From: Octopus vulgaris
Taxonomy: Eukaryota
Direction: 5' to 3'
DNA: 64,000 nt
Assembly (NCBI GenBank): GCA_951406725.2
Contig: OX597822.1
Location: forward strand, 35,960,001-36,024,000
Position numbers and translations under genes: made by a program. Position 1 is the stretch's first letter; the number at the start of each line of letters is the position of its first letter. Below are positions 11,816-60,432 of this stretch, piece after piece. Under the pieces are notes generated by a model that did no database searches, was not told the origin of the DNA, and saw only the letters and a list, made by a program, of their open reading frames with translations.

Positions 11816-12569
11816 ACAATGGCAAAGTGTGTTGTCCTCTTTCTGAAGATTCAATATGATTACCATAGACATTGCTCTGAAGCTATTGCAGCTTTTCTTC
11901 AAAGAATAACCCAGCAAACAAATGCCGATGTACTTTCTTTGCTAGTTGCTCTCAATTTGACAGCAGTTAAGTTTCCTCAGAGCAGCACAGGCACTGCCAT
12001 ACCTTTATCTCAAATGAAAAATACCACTGCAGACAAGTCAAAAACTGTTCTTCAAACATCAGAGATGTCAGCAGCTCCCCCTCTGCAATGTCTGGGAAAC
12101 ATTGCAAATCTACAGAATTCTGGGTCAGTAATGAAGAGTCATGAAGTGCTGGAAGCTGTACAGCAGCACCCTTCATCTTGTCCAGCTCTGCCTTATCCTT
12201 CTTGTCCATCAATTTCTCCATATCCTCCATCATCATCATCGTCTTCCTCATCTTCTGTGTTCACTACCCCATCACTGTCATCTTCCACAGATTTGGCATT
12301 TTCTCTCTTTACCAAGACTAACAGTTTGTATGCCCCTATCGGTGCGGCTGCTGGCCAGTCCCCACAGCTTAGTAGTAATAACCCCATATTGACTCCGGTT
12401 GTCAACCAAACTGCTGCTACTCAAACTACCACAACTGCTGCCGCGGCAGCAGCACAATGTCCAGATCCAGGAGCCCCCTGGCCCAAACTTAATACAAAGC
12501 CAACCATCAGGGCTATTGGAAAGAATGAAAAGGGTGCAACTGCTTACACAAAGTCTTCTTCTACAAAAT
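11816..12569 (+). CDS. Coding exon 2 (BAR-helix-3-like segment, then Ser/Pro/Thr/Ala-rich region)
   Basis: Pyrimidine-rich acceptor ttttcag|ACA ATG GCA (phase 0). Reads TMAKCVVLFLKIQYDYHRHCSEAIAAFL...SSSTK. Donor AAAT|GTGAGT at 12569/12570, phase 1. Confidence 0.9.
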
Positions 12570-20173: not shown

Positions 20174-20879
20174 CTAATAGCCAGATTGCTTCAGAAGAAG
20201 AATTGGACAGTGTTATCAATCTGTTGTCTGGTAGCGTAAACCTGTCCCAGCAACCAACAATGCATGTACCAAACCAACTACAGCTGTCTCCTTTACATCA
20301 ATCTTCCACTACGGGAACGAGTAACTCTATGTTTAGCTCTTTGGTCAGCTCCCCTGATATGGACGATCCACAAAAATTTTACAAAGGCAACAACGCCCAT
20401 CGGCGTTCTGAGGGTTCTTTGGATTTATCTGGAATGGCAAGTTTAGTAGGTGGCAGTAACAATGGTTGTATAGGTGGTGGTGGTGGTGGTGGTAGTAGTG
20501 GAGGTGGTGGTGGTGGTAATGGTGGTGGTAATGGTGGAGGTGGTGGTGGTGGTGTCAGAAGTGGTGGACGAAATACTTGGCCACACCCTGGTTACCACCA
20601 TCGCTCAAGTTTGCCAGCTGGCCCGTTGGGCTCCCAAAATCCTCTGAACTACGAGCAACGTGAGGATTATTCTCGGATGCTTCATTCAAACAATTCTTTG
20701 GATCAACGTAACCATATAAATGATGTTTACCTTCCGCCAGTCAGCCAGTCACAGGAGGTTCGATCAGGACTTTATTCATTGCCTGGTAGCAGTCATTTTA
20801 TATCCAATCCAGATTGGACGTTTCCTGACACAAAACTCAACAGAACTTGGCCAGTGTCAAGTATTAGTACTGGAGGCGG
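20174..20879 (+). CDS. Coding exon 3 (ASEEELDSVINLLSG helix, poly-Gly tract, two TWP motifs)
   Basis: Acceptor ttttgtag|CT AAT AGC completes the phase-1 codon (T+CT=Ser) and joins the 226-aa ORF frame. Donor GGCGG|GTAAGT at 20879/20880, phase 2. Confidence 0.9.
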
Positions 20880-29893: not shown

Positions 29894-30016
29894 GTCAGAT
29901 ACAATGAACAGCAGCTGGTCTGGTGTCCAAGACTCCAGTGATTTTAGTGATGATTCATCAAGTGGGGAGCAGTTCTTTGCTGTTGGTCTTCACCTGGTTA
30001 ATGCCATTGATTCTAA
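29894..30016 (+). CDS. Coding exon 4 (SDTMNSSWSGVQDSSDFSDDSSSGEQFFAVGLHLVNAIDS)
   Basis: Acceptor ttctctgttctag|G TCA GAT, phase 2. 123 nt open and protein-like. Donor TCTAA|GTACGG, phase 2, matching exon 5. This frame is absent from the ORF track. Confidence 0.8.
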
Positions 30017-50240: not shown

Positions 50241-50331
50241 AGACACCAGCAGTGATGAAGATGATGTTCCTGCCCAAAAAGAAGGCCTCTTGAGGGCTCC
50301 CATGGCAAGTCAAAGCATGGACAATCTCTAT
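50241..50331 (+). CDS. Coding exon 5 (KDTSSDEDDVPAQKEGLLRAPMASQSMDNLY)
   Basis: Acceptor tgtattttag|A GAC ACC completes AA+A=Lys. 91 nt. Donor CTAT|GTCAGT, phase 0 (an in-phase GC donor is also possible at 50304/50305). Confidence 0.75.
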
Positions 50332-50700
50332 GTCAGTATCTCCTCTTTCTCTCTCTCTCTCTCTCCCATTTATTTGTAACTGTAAACTAGATAGTGTGGT
50401 TAAGAAGTTTTCTTCACAACCACAAAGCTTTGAGTTTGGTCCTACTGCATGGCACCTTGTGTAAGTGTCTACTACTGAAACTCTGGGCTATAATAGAAGA
50501 GCTTCTTGTGTAGGAATTTGATAGAAACTGCAGGAAGCCCATCTTTGTGTGTACATGAGCATATGTGCTTCAGTGTTATTCTATGCTTGTGACTGTTGAG
50601 CAAGCCAGTGATGTTGACATTCCTTGTTGATATTAGAACCATATACTTGGCCATTTCAAAAACCTCTGGAGCAAAAAAAAAAATAAATAAAATAAACAGG

Positions 50701-51256
50701 TATTGCTTATGCCCACTTTAAGGTGTTTGTCCTCTAAGAGGCAACAATACTGTCATTTAACCCCAGGAATGCATCTCCTCCAGCTGGTTTATTCAGTGTG
50801 CAGGGGTTAAATGGCAGTATTATCATCTGTTAGAGGACAGCCACATTAAAGTGGCCATAAGCAACACTTTTTGGTTTGTATACTGCTTCTATCGTAAACA
50901 GATTTTCTAACATACTAGTTGCCTAGTTAAAAAAAATTAGTGACGGTATGACACTGTTTTCTATATATCGCAAGTAAGGTTAAATTGCTGTTATGCCTGG
51001 CGAACAAGTATCCATCACTGAGGAGATCCAGTACAAATCGAAACCACATGGTCTGATGGTCTTGAAGTCAGAGTGACAGGAGTTATCTCCCACTTGCAAT
51101 GTCGGGTGCAAGAAGTGCACTGATTAAACCTACCGGAGATGTCTTCCTGGGGTTAAATGGCAGTATCATCGTCTCTTAGAGGACAGCCACATTAGATTGG
51201 CCATAAGCAATACTTTTTGGTTCATATATTGCTTCTATCTGAAGCAGATGTTCTAA
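50701..51256 (+). mobile_element. Retrozyme/Penelope-pLTR-like non-coding element: inverted segment + 346-bp unit with hammerhead + partial tandem copy
   Basis: 50803-50910 is directly repeated at 51149-51256 (offset 346; about 13 mismatches in 108 nt by eye). 50701-50801 is the reverse complement of ~51115-51212. The hammerhead lies in the unique middle. Confidence 0.7.
51005..51064 (+). ncRNA. Type I hammerhead ribozyme, all core nucleotides intact
   Basis: Stem I CCATCA(51012-17)/TGATGG(51054-59). Core CTGAGGA (51018-24). Stem II GAT/ATC with 9-nt loop. GAAA (51040-43). Stem III ACC/GGT with ACAT loop. GUC cleavage triplet ends at 51053. Distal stem I extension CAAG(51005-08)/CTTG(51061-64) beyond a small internal loop. 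Confidence 0.88.
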
Positions 51257-51407
51257 ATTCTTAGCTCAAATAACTCTGTCCAGTCCCTGGAAAAAATGCT
51301 AAATGAACAAACAAGCATAAAAATCATGAACAACAAACAAAAAAAAAAGAACTCAATTACAAATGCGGAGTCAAATATTTTTGTTATTTTTATTGACAGT
51401 AACTTAA

Positions 51408-51627
51408 CTCTTTAGTAATTAAACCAGCCATATTCAGCATGAGTATTCTATCTGTCTTATGCTCAAACTGACCATATCCTGCCTCTCACACATAACCTAA
51501 AATGTCATTCTAAAAGTAAACAATCACCTCATTGAAATCTTGAAGCCAGAAGATAATGAATGGTTAATTCTAAATAATGCGAATAAATATGCATTACATT
51601 TGACAGAATAATTTGAATGGTAAAGGG
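51408..51627. mobile_element. piggyBac-like MITE family B (~220 bp)
   Basis: TTAA-flanked, ends TAAAGGG|TTAA. Homologous copies at 53862-54066, 57019-57237, 58955-59127 share the ctctcacacctaccctacaatgtc and tgacagaataatctgaatgctaaa blocks. Confidence 0.72.
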
Positions 51628-52221
51628 TTAAGAGTTTCAAGTCGTTGACCTCGTCAATCTGAGAATGCCAATTACTTGTGAAACTTAGATATTACTGTCA
51701 TTAAAATTATTAAAGATGTGTGGGTGTGTATGTTTATATGTTAGTTTCAGCGAGACAGACATTACATGCCTGAACTGCAGATTATTTGGACTACACACGT
51801 CAGTACCAATAGGTGCAGTCTTTTGAAAGACCAGTAGAGCAAGATTACAGTTTGACTATGTCATCCCTGCATTTCACATAAATTAACATATATAATAAGC
51901 CTCTATTCATTTCTAACATAAAGTTGTATTTGTGCAAATAAATTTTTGTACAACATAAACAAAAGCTATATATATATATATATATATATTATATTAAATT
52001 AGAGACAAAACCACTATTAGGCAAATCAAACAATGAAAAACTTAATCCAATACATAATATTATTTAATTTATATTATTTAAATATATAACAAAATTATTA
52101 AAAAAATATAATTAATATCACACTACGATCGTTTCATGCCTGCTAACATCTTCAAATTTTTGAGTCGCAGTCATTCATCTGATTTTTCCCTGTAAGTTTG
52201 GATTTATTCCTATTATATTAT

Positions 52222-52265
<44 letters not shown>

Positions 52266-53071
52266 CTTTTGAAACATTGCCAGATCAGGTTGGAGCCTGG
52301 TGCAGCCGCTGGCTTTCCACTGTCCAACCCATGCCAGCATGGAAAACAGACGTTAAACGATGATGATGATGATTTTATATATATGTATGTATGTATATAT
52401 AAATGTTTGTGTGTGTGCATACACATACACACACACAAAGGTGCAGGCATGGCTGTGTAGTTAAGTAGTTCACTTCTCAACCCCATTATTTCGAGTTAAG
52501 TCCTACTGCATGGCACCTTGGGCAAGTGTCTTCTACTGTCGCCCTAGACTGACCGATGCCTTGTGAATAAATTTGGTTAATGGAAACTATGAAGCCCATC
52601 GTATGCATATGTACATGTGTGCATGCACATATGTGTGTTTGTATGAGAGTTTTCATTCTGGGCTTCATATGGAAAAGTACTGAGTAAGAAATAGCAAAGT
52701 CTGTTGTCGATCACTCTCAAGAAATTGTCTGTGATTTGAAAGACTTGAAATATAAATTCCTTTTAAAAAATAGTTAAGGGTTCACATGGAAAAACGGGTG
52801 TAAAACAAAGGAACATTCAGACAATGTCATTCAGTTGTTGGACAGTGTCCAAGAATTTTAATCAATTATATCAATAGCTAGCATTTATCAAATGTCTAAG
52901 ATAAACGTTGGCATTAGGAAGGGCATCCAGTCATAGAAAACATGACGAGGCTGATAATGGAGCCTGGTGCAGCTCCCAACCTAACCAGCTTCAGTCAAAC
53001 TGTCTAACCCATGCCAGTATGGAAAGTAGACATTAAATGATGGTGATATATGCATATATCTGACAAACATA

Positions 53072-53461
53072 GGCGTAGGAGTGGCTGTGTGGTAAGTATC
53101 TTGCTTACAAACCACATGCGTTGCTCCTTGGGCAAGTGTCTTCTACTATAGCCTTGGGCCGACCAAAGACTTGTGAGTGGATTTGGTAGACGGAAACTGA
53201 AAGAAGACCGTCGTATATATGTATATGTGTATATATATGTGTGTACCCGTGCTAGCGCGGAAAACGGACGTTAAACGATGATGATGATGTTTGTGTGTGT
53301 GTCCCCAACATCACTTGACAACCGATGCTGGTGTGTTTACGTCCCCGTAACTTAGCGGTTCGGCAAAAGAGACCGATAGAATAAGTCCTGGGGTCAATTT
53401 GCTTGACTAAAAGCGGTGCTCCAGTATGTCCACAGTCAATGACTGAAACCAGTAAAAGAGT
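53072..53461 (+). mobile_element. SINE family A with TSD AAACAT
   Basis: ggcgtaggagtggctgtgtgg head. AAACAT at 53065-70 and 53462-67. Family B tail inside at ~53250-53290. Confidence 0.88.
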
Positions 53462-54335
53462 AAACATCCATACTGTTTGTGTTTGCTAGTTTCATTTACA
53501 AGGCTTTGGACAACCCATGCTTATAGTTTTAGCCACTTTGCCTAAGTTACTTTGTAATGGAGTCAAACTTAGAACTGCATACTTACAAAGTAAACTTTTT
53601 TAACTGTGTAACTATACACTCACACACATACATATATAGGCATCCCCTGTGTTACTGAAAGATTGCTGTCCTGAAATCTTAACATAACTTGGAATTCCAT
53701 AATGCTATACATTTTTTACCATTGTTACTTGGAAATCAATGAGCATGGTGGCAGATGTTCATCATTTGACACTGAAGATTCAGTTATCTGATCAACTGTA
53801 TGACCTACTCGCACAATAACATGTAATTGATTGAACACTCCACAGACACATGTACTGTTAACCTTTTAGCATTTAATCTGGCTTATCTAGTCCAAACATC
53901 CTACATGTTTTAAGTTCAGACCCAGCTTCTCACACCTACTCTACAATGTCGCTTCTAAAAATAAGCAATCACATCATTGAAATCTTGAAGCTATTAAATA
54001 AAGCATGATTTATTTAAAACAATAGATAAGCATCACATTTTACAGAATAACCTGAATGCTAAATGTTTAACATTTATATCTTAACAGAGCAAGTGAGACA
54101 CAGTTTGTGACAAGGTTTTACCCTTGGATCACAGGCACAATCCATCCAATGGGCTTCTATACAGTTTTCATCAACTCAGTTTTGCTCATAAAGCATGGGG
54201 TGGCCTTGGGCTATACAAAATGACAATTGTCCAAGATGCCCTGCATACATACATACTCGCATATATGTACATTGTCACTCATAAAATCTGGAAAATTCAC
54301 AGCAAAACTGGCAAGACTCCAGTATACTCTCTCTG

Positions 54336-54660
54336 TACTCTTTTACTTGTTTCAGTCATTTGACTGTGGCCATGCTGGAGCACCACCTTTAGTCAAGCAA
54401 ATCAACCCCGGGACTTATTCTTTGTAAGCCTAGTACTTATTCTATCGGCCTACTTTGCCGGACCGCTAAGTTACGGGGACATAAACACACCAGCATTGGT
54501 TGTGAAGCAATGTTGTGGGGACAAGCACAAACATACATATATACGACAGGCTTCTTTCAGTTTTCTTCTACCAAATCCACTCAAAAGGCTTTGGTCGGCC
54601 TGAGGCTATAGTAGAAGACACTTGCCCAAGGTGCCACGCAGTGGGACTGAACCCGGAGCC
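54336..54660 (-). mobile_element. SINE family A, reverse orientation, head-truncated
   Basis: Reverse complement of the family A body (tactcttttacttgtttcagtcatttgac ... cagtgggactgaacccgg). Confidence 0.88.
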
Positions 54661-56015
54661 ATAATAAAGTTTCTGACAATGGGACCGTATCATTTTGTTA
54701 CCATATACAAGTGCAGATTTGTGAATATTTTGAATAACCATCAAAGGATTTTATAAAATTTGAATAATACCAATGCTTGTACTTGTTTGCTTTCCGTGAA
54801 TGCCAACTCCTTGACATAAGGAAACCATAGTTACACAGCGACAATGTGTGTTTCAATAGATGGATAAACTGGGGTACCTGTTGTTGTTTAGCTATAGACC
54901 AGCCCTGATTGAGCAAGACCGATGATCAAATGCCTTCTAGCTATGACCATTCCATCTTCTTTTTCTATATCTAGAACTAAATACACTCTCCATTGTGTCC
55001 CTCTTTTCTCAAGACAGTGGAGTGCAATTTCAGAGAAATTGGCTGCTTTTCCTATCAGGTCAGGTGACTGTATAGAGCAGTGGCCTCAATCTGTTGAATG
55101 TGGTTCACTGGAGATTAAATAATAAAATTTACTGGTACACAGGAAATTAAGGAAAAAATTTATTGGTACACTTTACATGGGTACTTAAGCAAAACTGTTT
55201 TAACCATTTCCTTACCATATTTCTCTTGAAATATTTTGCCTTTGTTTCCATTAATGAACAATTTAGTAAACTAATCTAGTCATTATTAAGCTAGCCTTTG
55301 AAATGTGAATTAACAAGATTTTAATCTAGATCATTTAAAAATAGTCTAGGATCAGTCTCAGACAATTTAGTATTAAAAGCAATAAAGTAAAAACTTATTT
55401 AAACCCTTTTGTTACCATATTTCAATTGAAATACTTTGCCTCTATCTCAATTAAGTAATACTTTAGTAATATAATTTGGCCTTATTAAGTTGTTATGTAG
55501 AACAAACATTAACATGAAATTTCAATGGCACTTTAAAACAGGATGTTTGTATCTGAGAACTAGTTGCAGCTAGTTTCAGGCAGATTAATATCAAGAGTTA
55601 AATGTTAAAAATTAGAAAAAATATAGAAAATCATTTAGCTTGTCTTATTCATCATAATGAATTAAGAATAATATATTTTTAAAGATGCTCTGGCATTAGT
55701 TTGGTTTTCTAAAAAATGAATCATATATTTAAAAATCTACAACAAACCTAGAGACTCTATGTAGTGCATCATTTGAGGACCACTTACGCAGAGGCTCCCT
55801 GTCCTCTTTCTTTCTGGATATAGTTGGCAGTTGGCCTTCCCCTGTTAAAGGATCTTTTCTAAATTTTATTTTTAATTTATCTGCATACAGGGACCACTTT
55901 TTTCAGCAAACTCTAGACCATGAGTCAGATTGTACTAGGTTGCACCTACTAGTAGTATGTGAAACCTTTAGATGTAAACTAATTTGCATTTGAAATGATT
56001 ACAGTAGTTATTGTA

Positions 56016-56885
56016 CAGGGGTTGGACAAAATAATGGAAACACCTTAAAGTTTAAAACAAATTTATTCTAATATGGGGTAGGACTGCCTTTGGCAGTAAT
56101 TACAGCTTGAATTCTATGACATATGGACTCATACAAAGTTTGAATTGTTTCCAAAGGAATTTTTGTCAATTTTTCAGCTAAAACAGTCTCCAGTTCTTGT
56201 ATTGATGATGGTGGAGGATATTGCCTCCTTACTTGTTTTTCTAAAATGCACCATAACTGTTCAATAATATTGAGATCTGGGGACTGTGGTGGGCAGATAA
56301 GATGTTCAAATTCACTAGAATGTTCCTTGTGCCATTCAGTAACAGCTTTAGCTGTGTGAATTGGTGTATTATCATTAGTGGTTTTCTGATTGCAGTTCAC
56401 TGTGAAATCCAGCTTTGTGCAGCTCCCGGCAAACAATTTTTGTGGAAACTGGGTTCTCAAGGTGATCATTAAGACCTGCAGTAATTTTGGGAGCTGTACT
56501 TTTGTGATCCTTTCTAACAATTCGCATAAGAGTTCGACAGTCCCTATCTAAAAGTTTTGGTTTGCTTCCGGAGTTTCGTTTCGATGAGGAAGTTTTTCCC
56601 TCTTTCTCAAAGACTGTCATTACTTTTGAGACATTTCAGCTGTTTTCGTTACGTTAGCGCCTACCATACAAGCACCAACAATTTGACCTCTTTGAAAGTC
56701 CAATAGATCTGTCATTTCAATGAATTTTAATTACCTTTTTCTGATGATATCTGAAAAGAAACTGCAATTTTAGCAAAAACATATTAAGTAACACTTATAA
56801 TAAATCAATAAACAAGCTTTTGACGGTTTTATAAATATTCCAAAATTATGATGCTAGGTGTTTCCATTATTTTGTCCAACCCCTG
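56016..56885 (-). mobile_element. Internally deleted Tc1-family DNA transposon
   Basis: Perfect 30-bp TIRs (CAGGGGTTGGACAAAATAATGGAAACACCT) flanked by TA on both sides. Minus-strand frames give an HTH region (SGSKPKLLDRDCRTLMRIVRK) and catalytic motifs DNTPIH...PPQSPDLNIIEQLW. Only 870 bp and frame-disrupted. Confidence 0.93.
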
Positions 56886-57463
56886 TATATACATATGTTC
56901 CATAACAGGATACCCCTGGAAAGTCAATTTGGGTATCTTATTATTTGGGGTATTTTACTTATTCAATTTTTTTATTCATCCCATCCTGCTCCATCACAGA
57001 TCCTTGTTGCCAAATTAACCCTTTAATATACAAACTGGCCATATCCAGCCCAAATATTCCACCTGTTTTATGTTCAAATTAACCAGATCCAACCTCTCAC
57101 ACCTACCCTACAATGTCTTTTAAAAATAAACACCTACATCACTGAAATCTCAAAGCTGCAAGATAATGCATGATTAACTCAAAACAATGTCAATAAATAA
57201 GAATTACATTTGACAGAATAATCTAAATGCTAATGAGCTAAACTTGATTTCTATTTCCCAGTGTTTCATGTATATACTTAGTGCTAGATCACCAACCCAT
57301 AGATTTCTTGTTTTCCAGAAGTTGGATCAGTTGTCAAACAAGCTGTGTTATGTATCTGATTTAAGGATAAAATATCCACATTTCAAACCAGAATTAATAT
57401 TGGAAAAAATTTGATAAAAAATGTAAACATATGTGCGTGTTTGTGTATACATACACACACATG

Positions 57464-57684
57464 CTGGGATGGGCAAAAGTAGGTATATAATTGCATATAT
57501 ATATGTATATATGTAAGCATTTCAAGATGTATATAAAAATAAAAAAAGATGGCTTCCAATGAACTAGGCATCTCTCACAGATCTCTTAGTCGACTTATGA
57601 AATCACTTGGGTAAAAAAGGAATAGAGAAATGGAAAGAACATTCCACTCATTAAGCAACTTATACCTATTTTTGCCCACCCCTG
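57464..57684. mobile_element. Tc1/mariner-type MITE just upstream of exon 6
   Basis: 24-bp TIR CTGGGATGGGCAAAAGTAGGTATA / TATACCTATTTTTGCCCACCCCTG (3 mismatches), followed by TA. Confidence 0.75.
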
Positions 57685-57732
57685 TATAAACACATACACA
57701 CATATATATAAAAAAATTTTTTAATCTTTTAG

Positions 57733-57931
57733 GATTGCAAATCAACATATACTTGGCCACCGAAGCACCCATGGGCACGCCGCAGCAACCTAGTCCATAA
57801 TTCACCAGAACTTGACTGTTCGGAATCTACCCAATCAATAAGTGGTACACCTAGTGTAGGGCCGCCAATTCATTCATGTGGGCCATGGTCAGCTGACCCA
57901 CTTCACCTTCCTAGAAACATGTGGCCCACAG
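57733..57931 (+). CDS. Coding exon 6 (DCKSTYTWPPKHPWARRSN...LPRNMWPT)
   Basis: Acceptor ttaatcttttag|GAT TGC AAA, phase 0. 199 nt open, higher GC than its flanks, with the same TWP/WP motifs as exon 3. Donor ACAG|GTAAAG, phase 1. Confidence 0.82.
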
Positions 57932-60355: not shown

Positions 60356-60432
60356 GAATACCCTCCCACACACCGAACCAGAATTCAGGTCATCAAGGCT
60401 ATGGTGCTTTACATTTGGCTAATCGAGAATAG
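60356..60432 (+). CDS. Terminal coding exon 7 (GIPSHTPNQNSGHQGYGALHLANRE*)
   Basis: Acceptor ttttgtttattgcag|GA ATA CCC completes G+GA=Gly. TAG at 60430-60432. Followed by SINE-poor, AT-rich, 3'UTR-like sequence. Confidence 0.75.

Follow-up and report, generated by a model that had tools for sequence, protein, structure and literature searches.

The Host Gene and the Intronic Insertion

The window analysed here is a 64,000-nt stretch of Octopus vulgaris DNA (GCA_951406725.2, contig OX597822.1, positions 35,960,001 to 36,024,000 of the forward strand), and all coordinates count from its first letter. A protein labelled Octopus sinensis maps to the window exon by exon on the + strand, at 96–100% over full exon stretches (Table 1). 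The host gene is named KIAA0355-like after a member of the protein's cluster, and we take GARRE1 to be a synonym of KIAA0355. In the database, the closest protein goes by "location of vulva defective 1," a name that probably originates from low-complexity sequence, and exon 1 (303-950) shows a weak match to DUF4745 (E 0.023) that lies below the cut-off. The long isoform includes an optional 41-codon exon at ~29894-30016. Junctions to exon 5 with this exon both included and skipped occur in RNA-type contigs, that is, in the assembled contigs of two presumed-RNA runs that make up the RNA data. Exon 5 is found in spliced transcript contigs at depths of 41 and 54, and the loose ends of these contigs match both upstream exons.

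The intron that follows exon 5 carries an insertion with three parts: (i) an inverted truncated piece; (ii) a truncated unit; and (iii) one full unit of a repeat with a 346-bp period. A tRNA-derived SINE identity was rejected for the unit, as no tRNA gene was found. The insertion contains only one hammerhead motif. A first, sequence-only reading of this DNA had placed that motif on the sense strand of an intron, about 680 nt downstream of the exon 5 donor, and this position holds: the hammerhead starts 680 nt past the donor (50332) on the host strand, and the donor belongs to coding exon 5 as numbered in the long isoform. The next acceptor is 6680 nt beyond the predicted cut. The hammerhead, which is located inside the repeat element, would be transcribed together with the host intron. 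Other repeats are present in the same region, namely the remnant of a DDE_3 transposase in the same intron (56071-56547, - strand; Pfam E 2e-11), and a highly abundant short repeat, likely a SINE, of which two copies (81%) are found beside the element at 50394-50477 and 52455-52538.

Table 1. Host gene, inserted element and hammerhead motif in the window.
Feature	Position	Strand	Basis or remark
Host coding exons (approximate)	303-884, 11816-12568, 20175-20879, 50241-50331, 57733-57931, 60356-60432	+	Protein mapping
Host coding exon 5 (long isoform)	50241..50331	+	Protein mapping, transcript contigs
Host intron with the element, 7401 nt, GT-AG	50332..57732	+	Protein mapping
Host coding exon 6 (3' end approximate)	57733..57931	+	Protein mapping
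Inverted truncated piece, head to head at the 5' end	50682..50798	-	Matches 51118-51230 (78%); predicted pairing with distal arm
Truncated 3' part of preceding unit (partial tandem, pseudo-LTR-like)	50803..50910	+	88% identical to 51149-51256; lacks the hammerhead
Full 346-bp unit of dispersed non-coding repeat (putative boundaries)	50911..51256	+	No tRNA gene, no long ORF
Type I hammerhead	51012..51059	+	Sequence; Rfam HH9 18.7 bits (below cut-off); family alignment
Distal stem I extension, closing internal loop 51009-11 / 51060	51005-08/51061-64 (span 51005..51064)	+	Fold and family alignment
Stem I, 6 bp	51012-17/51054-59	+	Sequence
Catalytic core CUGAGGA	51018-24	+	Sequence
Stem II, 3 bp and a C.A mismatch	51025-27/51037-39	+	Sequence
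GAAA	51040-43	+	Sequence
Stem III, 4-nt loop	51043-45/51050-52	+	Sequence
Predicted cut after C51053	51053/51054	+	Sequence
Six A>G differences, three shared by both runs	51155..51224	+	RNA-type contigs

Structure of the Hammerhead Motif

The motif has all elements of the type I core (C3, U4, G5, A6, N7, G8, A9; G12, A13, A14; A15.1-U16.1; and H17) in type I order, G10.1-C11.1 is present, and the three stems are pairable with 6, 3, and 3 pairs. The earlier description of an intact type I hammerhead was thus right about the presence and order of the core elements, but "intact" overstates a motif whose stem II consists of three pairs and a C.A mismatch. The mismatch stems from position 51036, which is an A in the window copy and a G in the family (59 of 68 paralogs), so that stem II is one pair shorter than that of the family. 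The 9-nt loop II reported at first sight is really a 7-nt loop plus this lost pair. The distal extension of stem I, also proposed from the letters, was found and is family-wide, with copy-specific changes at 51006 and 51011. Loop 1 and loop 2 are both present, and a sequence comparison that bears on their mutual contact has 51011, 51031, and 51036 deviating from the family.

The Infernal check that had been suggested did not return the motif: a search of the window with Rfam gave zero matches at gathering score. The best Rfam hammerhead match, an alignment to HH9, reaches 18.7 bits against a cut-off of 52. Three paralogs exceed the window copy in this alignment (24.6, 23.0, and 21.9 bits), all of them below the gathering score. 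In the minimum-energy fold, stems I and III are kept and stem II is replaced by a hairpin (51017-20/51029-32) that occupies C3-U4-G5. The folding model disfavors stem II (pair probability 0.0) and assigns a probability of ~0.99 to five of the six stem I pairs. The model value for the best-preserved paralog is likewise low (0.0097 vs. 0.0016), and no known active control was folded alongside; therefore, folding is weak evidence on activity.

A Dispersed Repeat Family

A genome search with the element returned 373 first-look candidates, and the 40 that were scored gave 57 matches on many contigs. Long copies are 72–81% identical, and tandem and inverted layouts are found among them. In contrast to the single hammerhead of the window locus, tandem units that each carry one are present at three loci (L004, L013, and L020); hammerheads on opposite strands occur at three others (L008, L080, and L101). 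The same hammerhead recurs, decayed, in the 54 unique segments across the site, a few of which have partial deletions. By this alignment, the hammerhead is not locus-specific, but is part of the 346-bp dispersed repeat. Built from its commonest letters, the family hammerhead has the canonical metazoan type I form (PMC4209133): stem I is 6 bp long, stem II has 4 bp and closes a 7-nt loop, and stem III is palindromic. Upstream, family copies run into the tail of a previous unit or into an inverted piece, rather than into coding sequence.

Genome-wide, a minimal-hammerhead pattern gives 287 matches, compared to 24 for a reversed control. The family profile matches about half of 30 loci fetched from these 287; 15 of the 30 can form three or more pairs in stem II, for which several distinct sequences occur, and 10 can form five or more pairs in stem I. 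Five family hammerhead cores stand in tandem at 42-bp spacing at one further locus (G000:C21:20645311-20645508). At the level of titles and abstract openings, no paper on a hammerhead-bearing octopus family was found, and the supplements of PMC7229834 and PMC4209133 may list cephalopod motifs.

The family is old. The exact family-type core pattern has a single match in 2.8 Gb, which indicates that there are no young copies and that the family looks extinct. A tree of 69 copies is star-like, with 0 of 66 nodes at a support of at least 0.95, a mean terminal branch of 0.106, and a mean internal branch of 0.009.

Core Position 4 and CpG Decay

Many hammerheads of the family and of its sister families have a C at core position 4 (CCGA), which is a rare natural variant. 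A U4C change reduces activity in vitro, yet is tolerated in a viroid (PMC3088659). At core positions 4-5, the 68 paralogs have TG in 25, CG in 22, and CA in 14 copies; a hand count of 66 pattern matches gave CG 23, TG 22, CA 12, TA 6, and other 3. These two positions behave like the other decaying CpG sites of the family, and CpG decay either turns a C4 core into the canonical core or destroys G5. A separate U4 subfamily was considered and rejected, as the tree shows no clustering of U4 copies (20 changes vs. 20.7 when shuffled), though a star tree from 238 bp has little power. Because of the CpG-like spread and the lack of clustering, the canonical U4 of the window copy likely derives from deamination of C4, a mixed source being the other possibility.

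Age, Decay, and the Question of Retention

The intact core, set against direct repeats that differ by about 12%, had been taken as a weak hint of retention. The divergence itself is confirmed, at 88% identity between 50803-50910 and 51149-51256. It was discarded as a clock for the insertion, because departures from the commonest letters over 80 columns number 4, 6, and 16 in the three terminal pieces, which is too noisy for a date. Decay was scored against the column majorities of 49 paralogs, from which the window copy and four sister-family rows were excluded. On this baseline, the divergence of the window copy over non-CpG columns is 11.5% (24 of 209), compared to a paralog median of 10.6%, and 8 of 18 CpG columns are changed.

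The ribozyme deviates from the commonest letters as often as its surroundings (6 of 48 positions vs. 26 of 179 outside). Two of its six differences, 51015 and 51056, compensate each other by turning a C-G pair of stem I into U-A, and one compensatory pair is likewise found in 7 of 68 paralogs. The others are the C to U change at core position 4 (51019), a change in loop 2 (51031), the uncompensated loss of the stem II pair (51036), and a change that breaks the stem III palindrome (51048). Loop 1 is changed as well (51011), and 51011, 51031, 51036, and 51048 are specific to this copy.

The chance that nine non-CpG core positions stay unchanged at the rate of the window copy is 0.33. Among 37 copies that were found with flank-only queries, the U4 core is intact in two and a U4 or C4 core in five; chance survival therefore suffices to account for an intact core. 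The set of 68 paralogs, which was partly enriched through hammerhead patterns and from which five sister rows were excluded, contains seven U4 cores, three of them with no more than one broken pair. Under a strict test (U4 core with 6+3+3 pairs), 0 of 49 paralogs equal the window copy. The window copy is in the best few percent of preservation, but it was selected for its intact look from a large family. Across paralogs, non-CpG core positions are less variable than flanks (31/420 vs. 840/7227, p = 0.007); in the flank-only set the same comparison gives 26/312 vs. 604/5314 (p = 0.12). Two close orthologous DNA contigs have an unchanged core at 1 and 6 differences in ~330 nt, a comparison with almost no power, and one of them has AA>GG at 51006-07 in the distal stem with no matching change. 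These data do not bear out the hint of retention: by comparison with its paralogs, the copy decays at the usual rate of the family, inside the ribozyme as outside, with no excess conservation.

RNA over the Element

A contig of the first run (51037-51305, depth 2.9) has seven differences, six of which are A>G, and a contig of the second run (51123-51391, depth 2) has three, all A>G, at three of the sites of the first. In orthologous DNA contigs, a single difference is found over 51156-51400 and another single one over 51164-51400. All six A>G sites are inside the span of the inverted-repeat arm, which holds 31 of 77 adenosines (p = 0.003), and at four of the six the predicted fold has the adenosine paired to the upstream arm. 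The cluster is likely due to ADAR A-to-I editing of the sense intron RNA on its fold-back, in contigs that have a depth below 5 and come without matched DNA. RNA contig cover is absent over 50938-51019 in both RNA-type runs, which was not counted as evidence. The contig that crosses the cut site (X1) begins only 17 nt on its 5' side; given a bridging rule of 31 nt, it does not count as a bridge over the site.

Probable Relation to Penelope-like Elements

Penelope-like elements insert with an inverted 5'-truncated piece beside a partial tandem arrangement (PMC8557442), which is the layout seen in the window. They are reported to be abundant in octopus genomes (PMC8967140), and non-LTR retrozymes are derived from Penelope pseudo-LTRs according to a 2026 preprint (10.64898/2026.07.22.740005). 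With its non-coding sequence and one type I hammerhead, the 346-bp unit falls within the 150–450 bp of a non-LTR retrozyme. An autonomous Penelope element would have a reverse transcriptase and GIY-YIG ORF flanked by pseudo-LTRs, and the element has no ORF.

Alternatively, the unit may belong to an autonomous Penelope-like element, as its 3' stub or pseudo-LTR, and not have been amplified separately as a non-autonomous unit. This concerns its origin only, is compatible with a passenger ribozyme, and is unlikely, though worth keeping in mind. The insertion layout is the same, the genome contains 148 matches to GIY-YIG ORFs, and a GIY-YIG remnant is located ~150 nt from a family unit at one locus (L025). 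However, this remnant is on the 3' side of the unit, and in 121 family and hammerhead loci, which include many duplicates, it is the one place matched by ORF stretches of the GIY-YIG loci. None of the 30 GIY-YIG loci that were fetched from the 148 resembles the element, no autonomous partner was found among these 30 and the 121 loci, and the upstream extensions of family copies described above also argue against this origin. About 1 kb past the GIY-YIG match, the loci L126-L151 contain a young-looking family with 781-aa open frames that end in GIY-YIG; downstream of the ORF, this family has a hammerhead-like core with U3-A8 covariation, and its sequence is unrelated to the element in the window.

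A Probable Passenger Ribozyme and Its Alternatives

The evidence points with good confidence to the hammerhead as the passenger of a single old repeat copy, likely devoid of a role in the host gene. The 346-bp repeat itself is likely a retroelement of the non-LTR retrozyme type, non-autonomous and dependent on Penelope. Based on the retrozyme and Penelope papers, the hammerhead of the source element would have cut multimeric transcripts into units, which the reverse transcriptase and endonuclease of Penelope would have copied and inserted. One copy would then have landed in the host intron and drifted. This copy is predicted to cut slowly or not at all, given that its stem II is weak, that its loops are changed, that another hairpin competes, and that there is no second hammerhead for dimer folding. 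In Xenopus, 8 of 9 tested retrozyme elements were without cleavage (bioRxiv 10.64898/2026.07.22.740005). Splicing to the acceptor, 6.7 kb downstream, is expected to outpace such cutting, so that the intron would be spliced normally, and the fold-back of the element would likely be edited by ADAR.

An unselected passenger may still cut a noticeable share of nascent transcripts, tolerated through splicing rescue or as a small loss. The canonical core and a stable stem I with its distal extension would allow this, monomers of invertebrate retrozymes cleave at 0.1–0.8 per minute (PMC7229834), and some natural hammerheads tolerate a short stem II (PMC3088659). On the other hand, the alternative hairpin competes for C3-U4-G5 and stem II is weak. 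A hammerhead monomer with a 2-bp stem III and a weak stem II cleaved just 22% in an hour (PMC7229834). The start of the X1 contig before the site, not at it, is a further hint, subject to the bridging rule given above. Noticeable cutting is, on balance, improbable.

A host-retained regulator, which would cleave the nascent pre-mRNA at 680 nt past the exon 5 donor and tune exon 5-6 splicing or termination in the manner of the conserved intronic ribozymes found in amniotes, appears very improbable. Hammerheads have been domesticated in introns of amniote RECK and C10orf118, where the mark of retention is cross-species conservation (PMC6155905; PMC3088659; PMC10761166), and the Cpeb3 ribozyme is another precedent (PMC10919898). 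Slow intronic ribozymes left splicing unaffected, while fast ones affected it (Fong et al., 2009, as summarised in PMC10919898). A fully canonical core on the sense strand of a transcribed gene, the compensatory pair in stem I, the good preservation of the copy, and the core shared with both orthologues are what such a regulator would present. Against it stand the equal substitution rate in and out of the ribozyme, the uncompensated stem II loss, changes in both loops, the unmatched substitution in one orthologue, and the intact cores of unselected copies; the window copy itself was picked for its intact look. A more elaborate scenario of early domestication, with a source that had an attenuated C4 hammerhead, deamination that switched the window copy on, and a host that kept a slow cutter within an ADAR-edited fold-back to tune exon 5-6 splicing, is a long shot. 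If the host did keep the motif, a ribozyme from a transposon would have become a splicing regulator in an invertebrate.

A purely coincidental fit to the short hammerhead consensus, with which the bare core count in the window (8 vs. 4.96 expected, not beyond chance), a fold z-score of -0.66, and the Rfam result would agree, is refuted by the family alignment, in which the motif is family-wide, by the excess of genomic matches over the reversed control, and by related families that keep stem II with different sequences.

As a passenger, the motif adds an octopus family to the known hammerhead-bearing Penelope and retrozyme repeats, and it illustrates that a canonical-looking core in a single intron is weak evidence of function. 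The frequent C4 core of the family is a small point for specialists in ribozymes.

Comparison with Known Systems

Among amniote ribozymes, HH9 in RECK and HH10 in C10orf118 (PMC6155905; PMC3088659) share with the window motif a retroelement-type type I fold on the sense strand of an intron, and HH9 is its best Rfam match. In contrast, they are single-locus ribozymes conserved across mammals or amniotes, whereas the octopus motif is one of many decaying copies, at 18.7 bits against the cut-off of 52. The intronic HDV-like ribozyme of Cpeb3 (PMC10919898) resembles the functional model put forward in the sequence-only reading, in which intron cleavage races splicing over several kilobases. Unlike the octopus motif, which is known from sequence, it belongs to another ribozyme class, is conserved, and has a measured half-life and effect on mRNA.

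The pseudo-LTR hammerheads of Penelope elements (Cervera and de la Pena, 2014, PMC4209133; PMC8557442) are similar in having an inverted 5'-truncated piece beside a partial tandem, hammerheads near the 3' end, and pairs of opposite-strand motifs a few hundred bases apart. They differ in that the octopus family has the canonical form with 6, 4, and 2 bp rather than the minimal one, and has no reverse transcriptase or GIY-YIG ORF attached.

Metazoan non-LTR retrozymes (Cervera and de la Pena, 2020, PMC7229834; Li et al., 2026, 10.64898/2026.07.22.740005) match on several counts. As a class, they occur as linear and circular RNAs of unit length. The octopus unit is non-coding and 346 bp long, compared to ~350–390 bp in mussel, and contains a single type I hammerhead, in which, across the family, stems I and II have 6 and 4 bp and stem III is short and palindromic. 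Some copies are in tandem and others are dispersed monomers, some are intronic, and Penelope-like elements are present in the same genome; of the Xenopus retrozyme copies, 42–44% are intronic, with some depletion per base (bioRxiv 10.64898/2026.07.22.740005). On the other side, the octopus family is old and decayed, and is seen here with no long arrays and with many C4 copies, and the insertion in the window has only one hammerhead.
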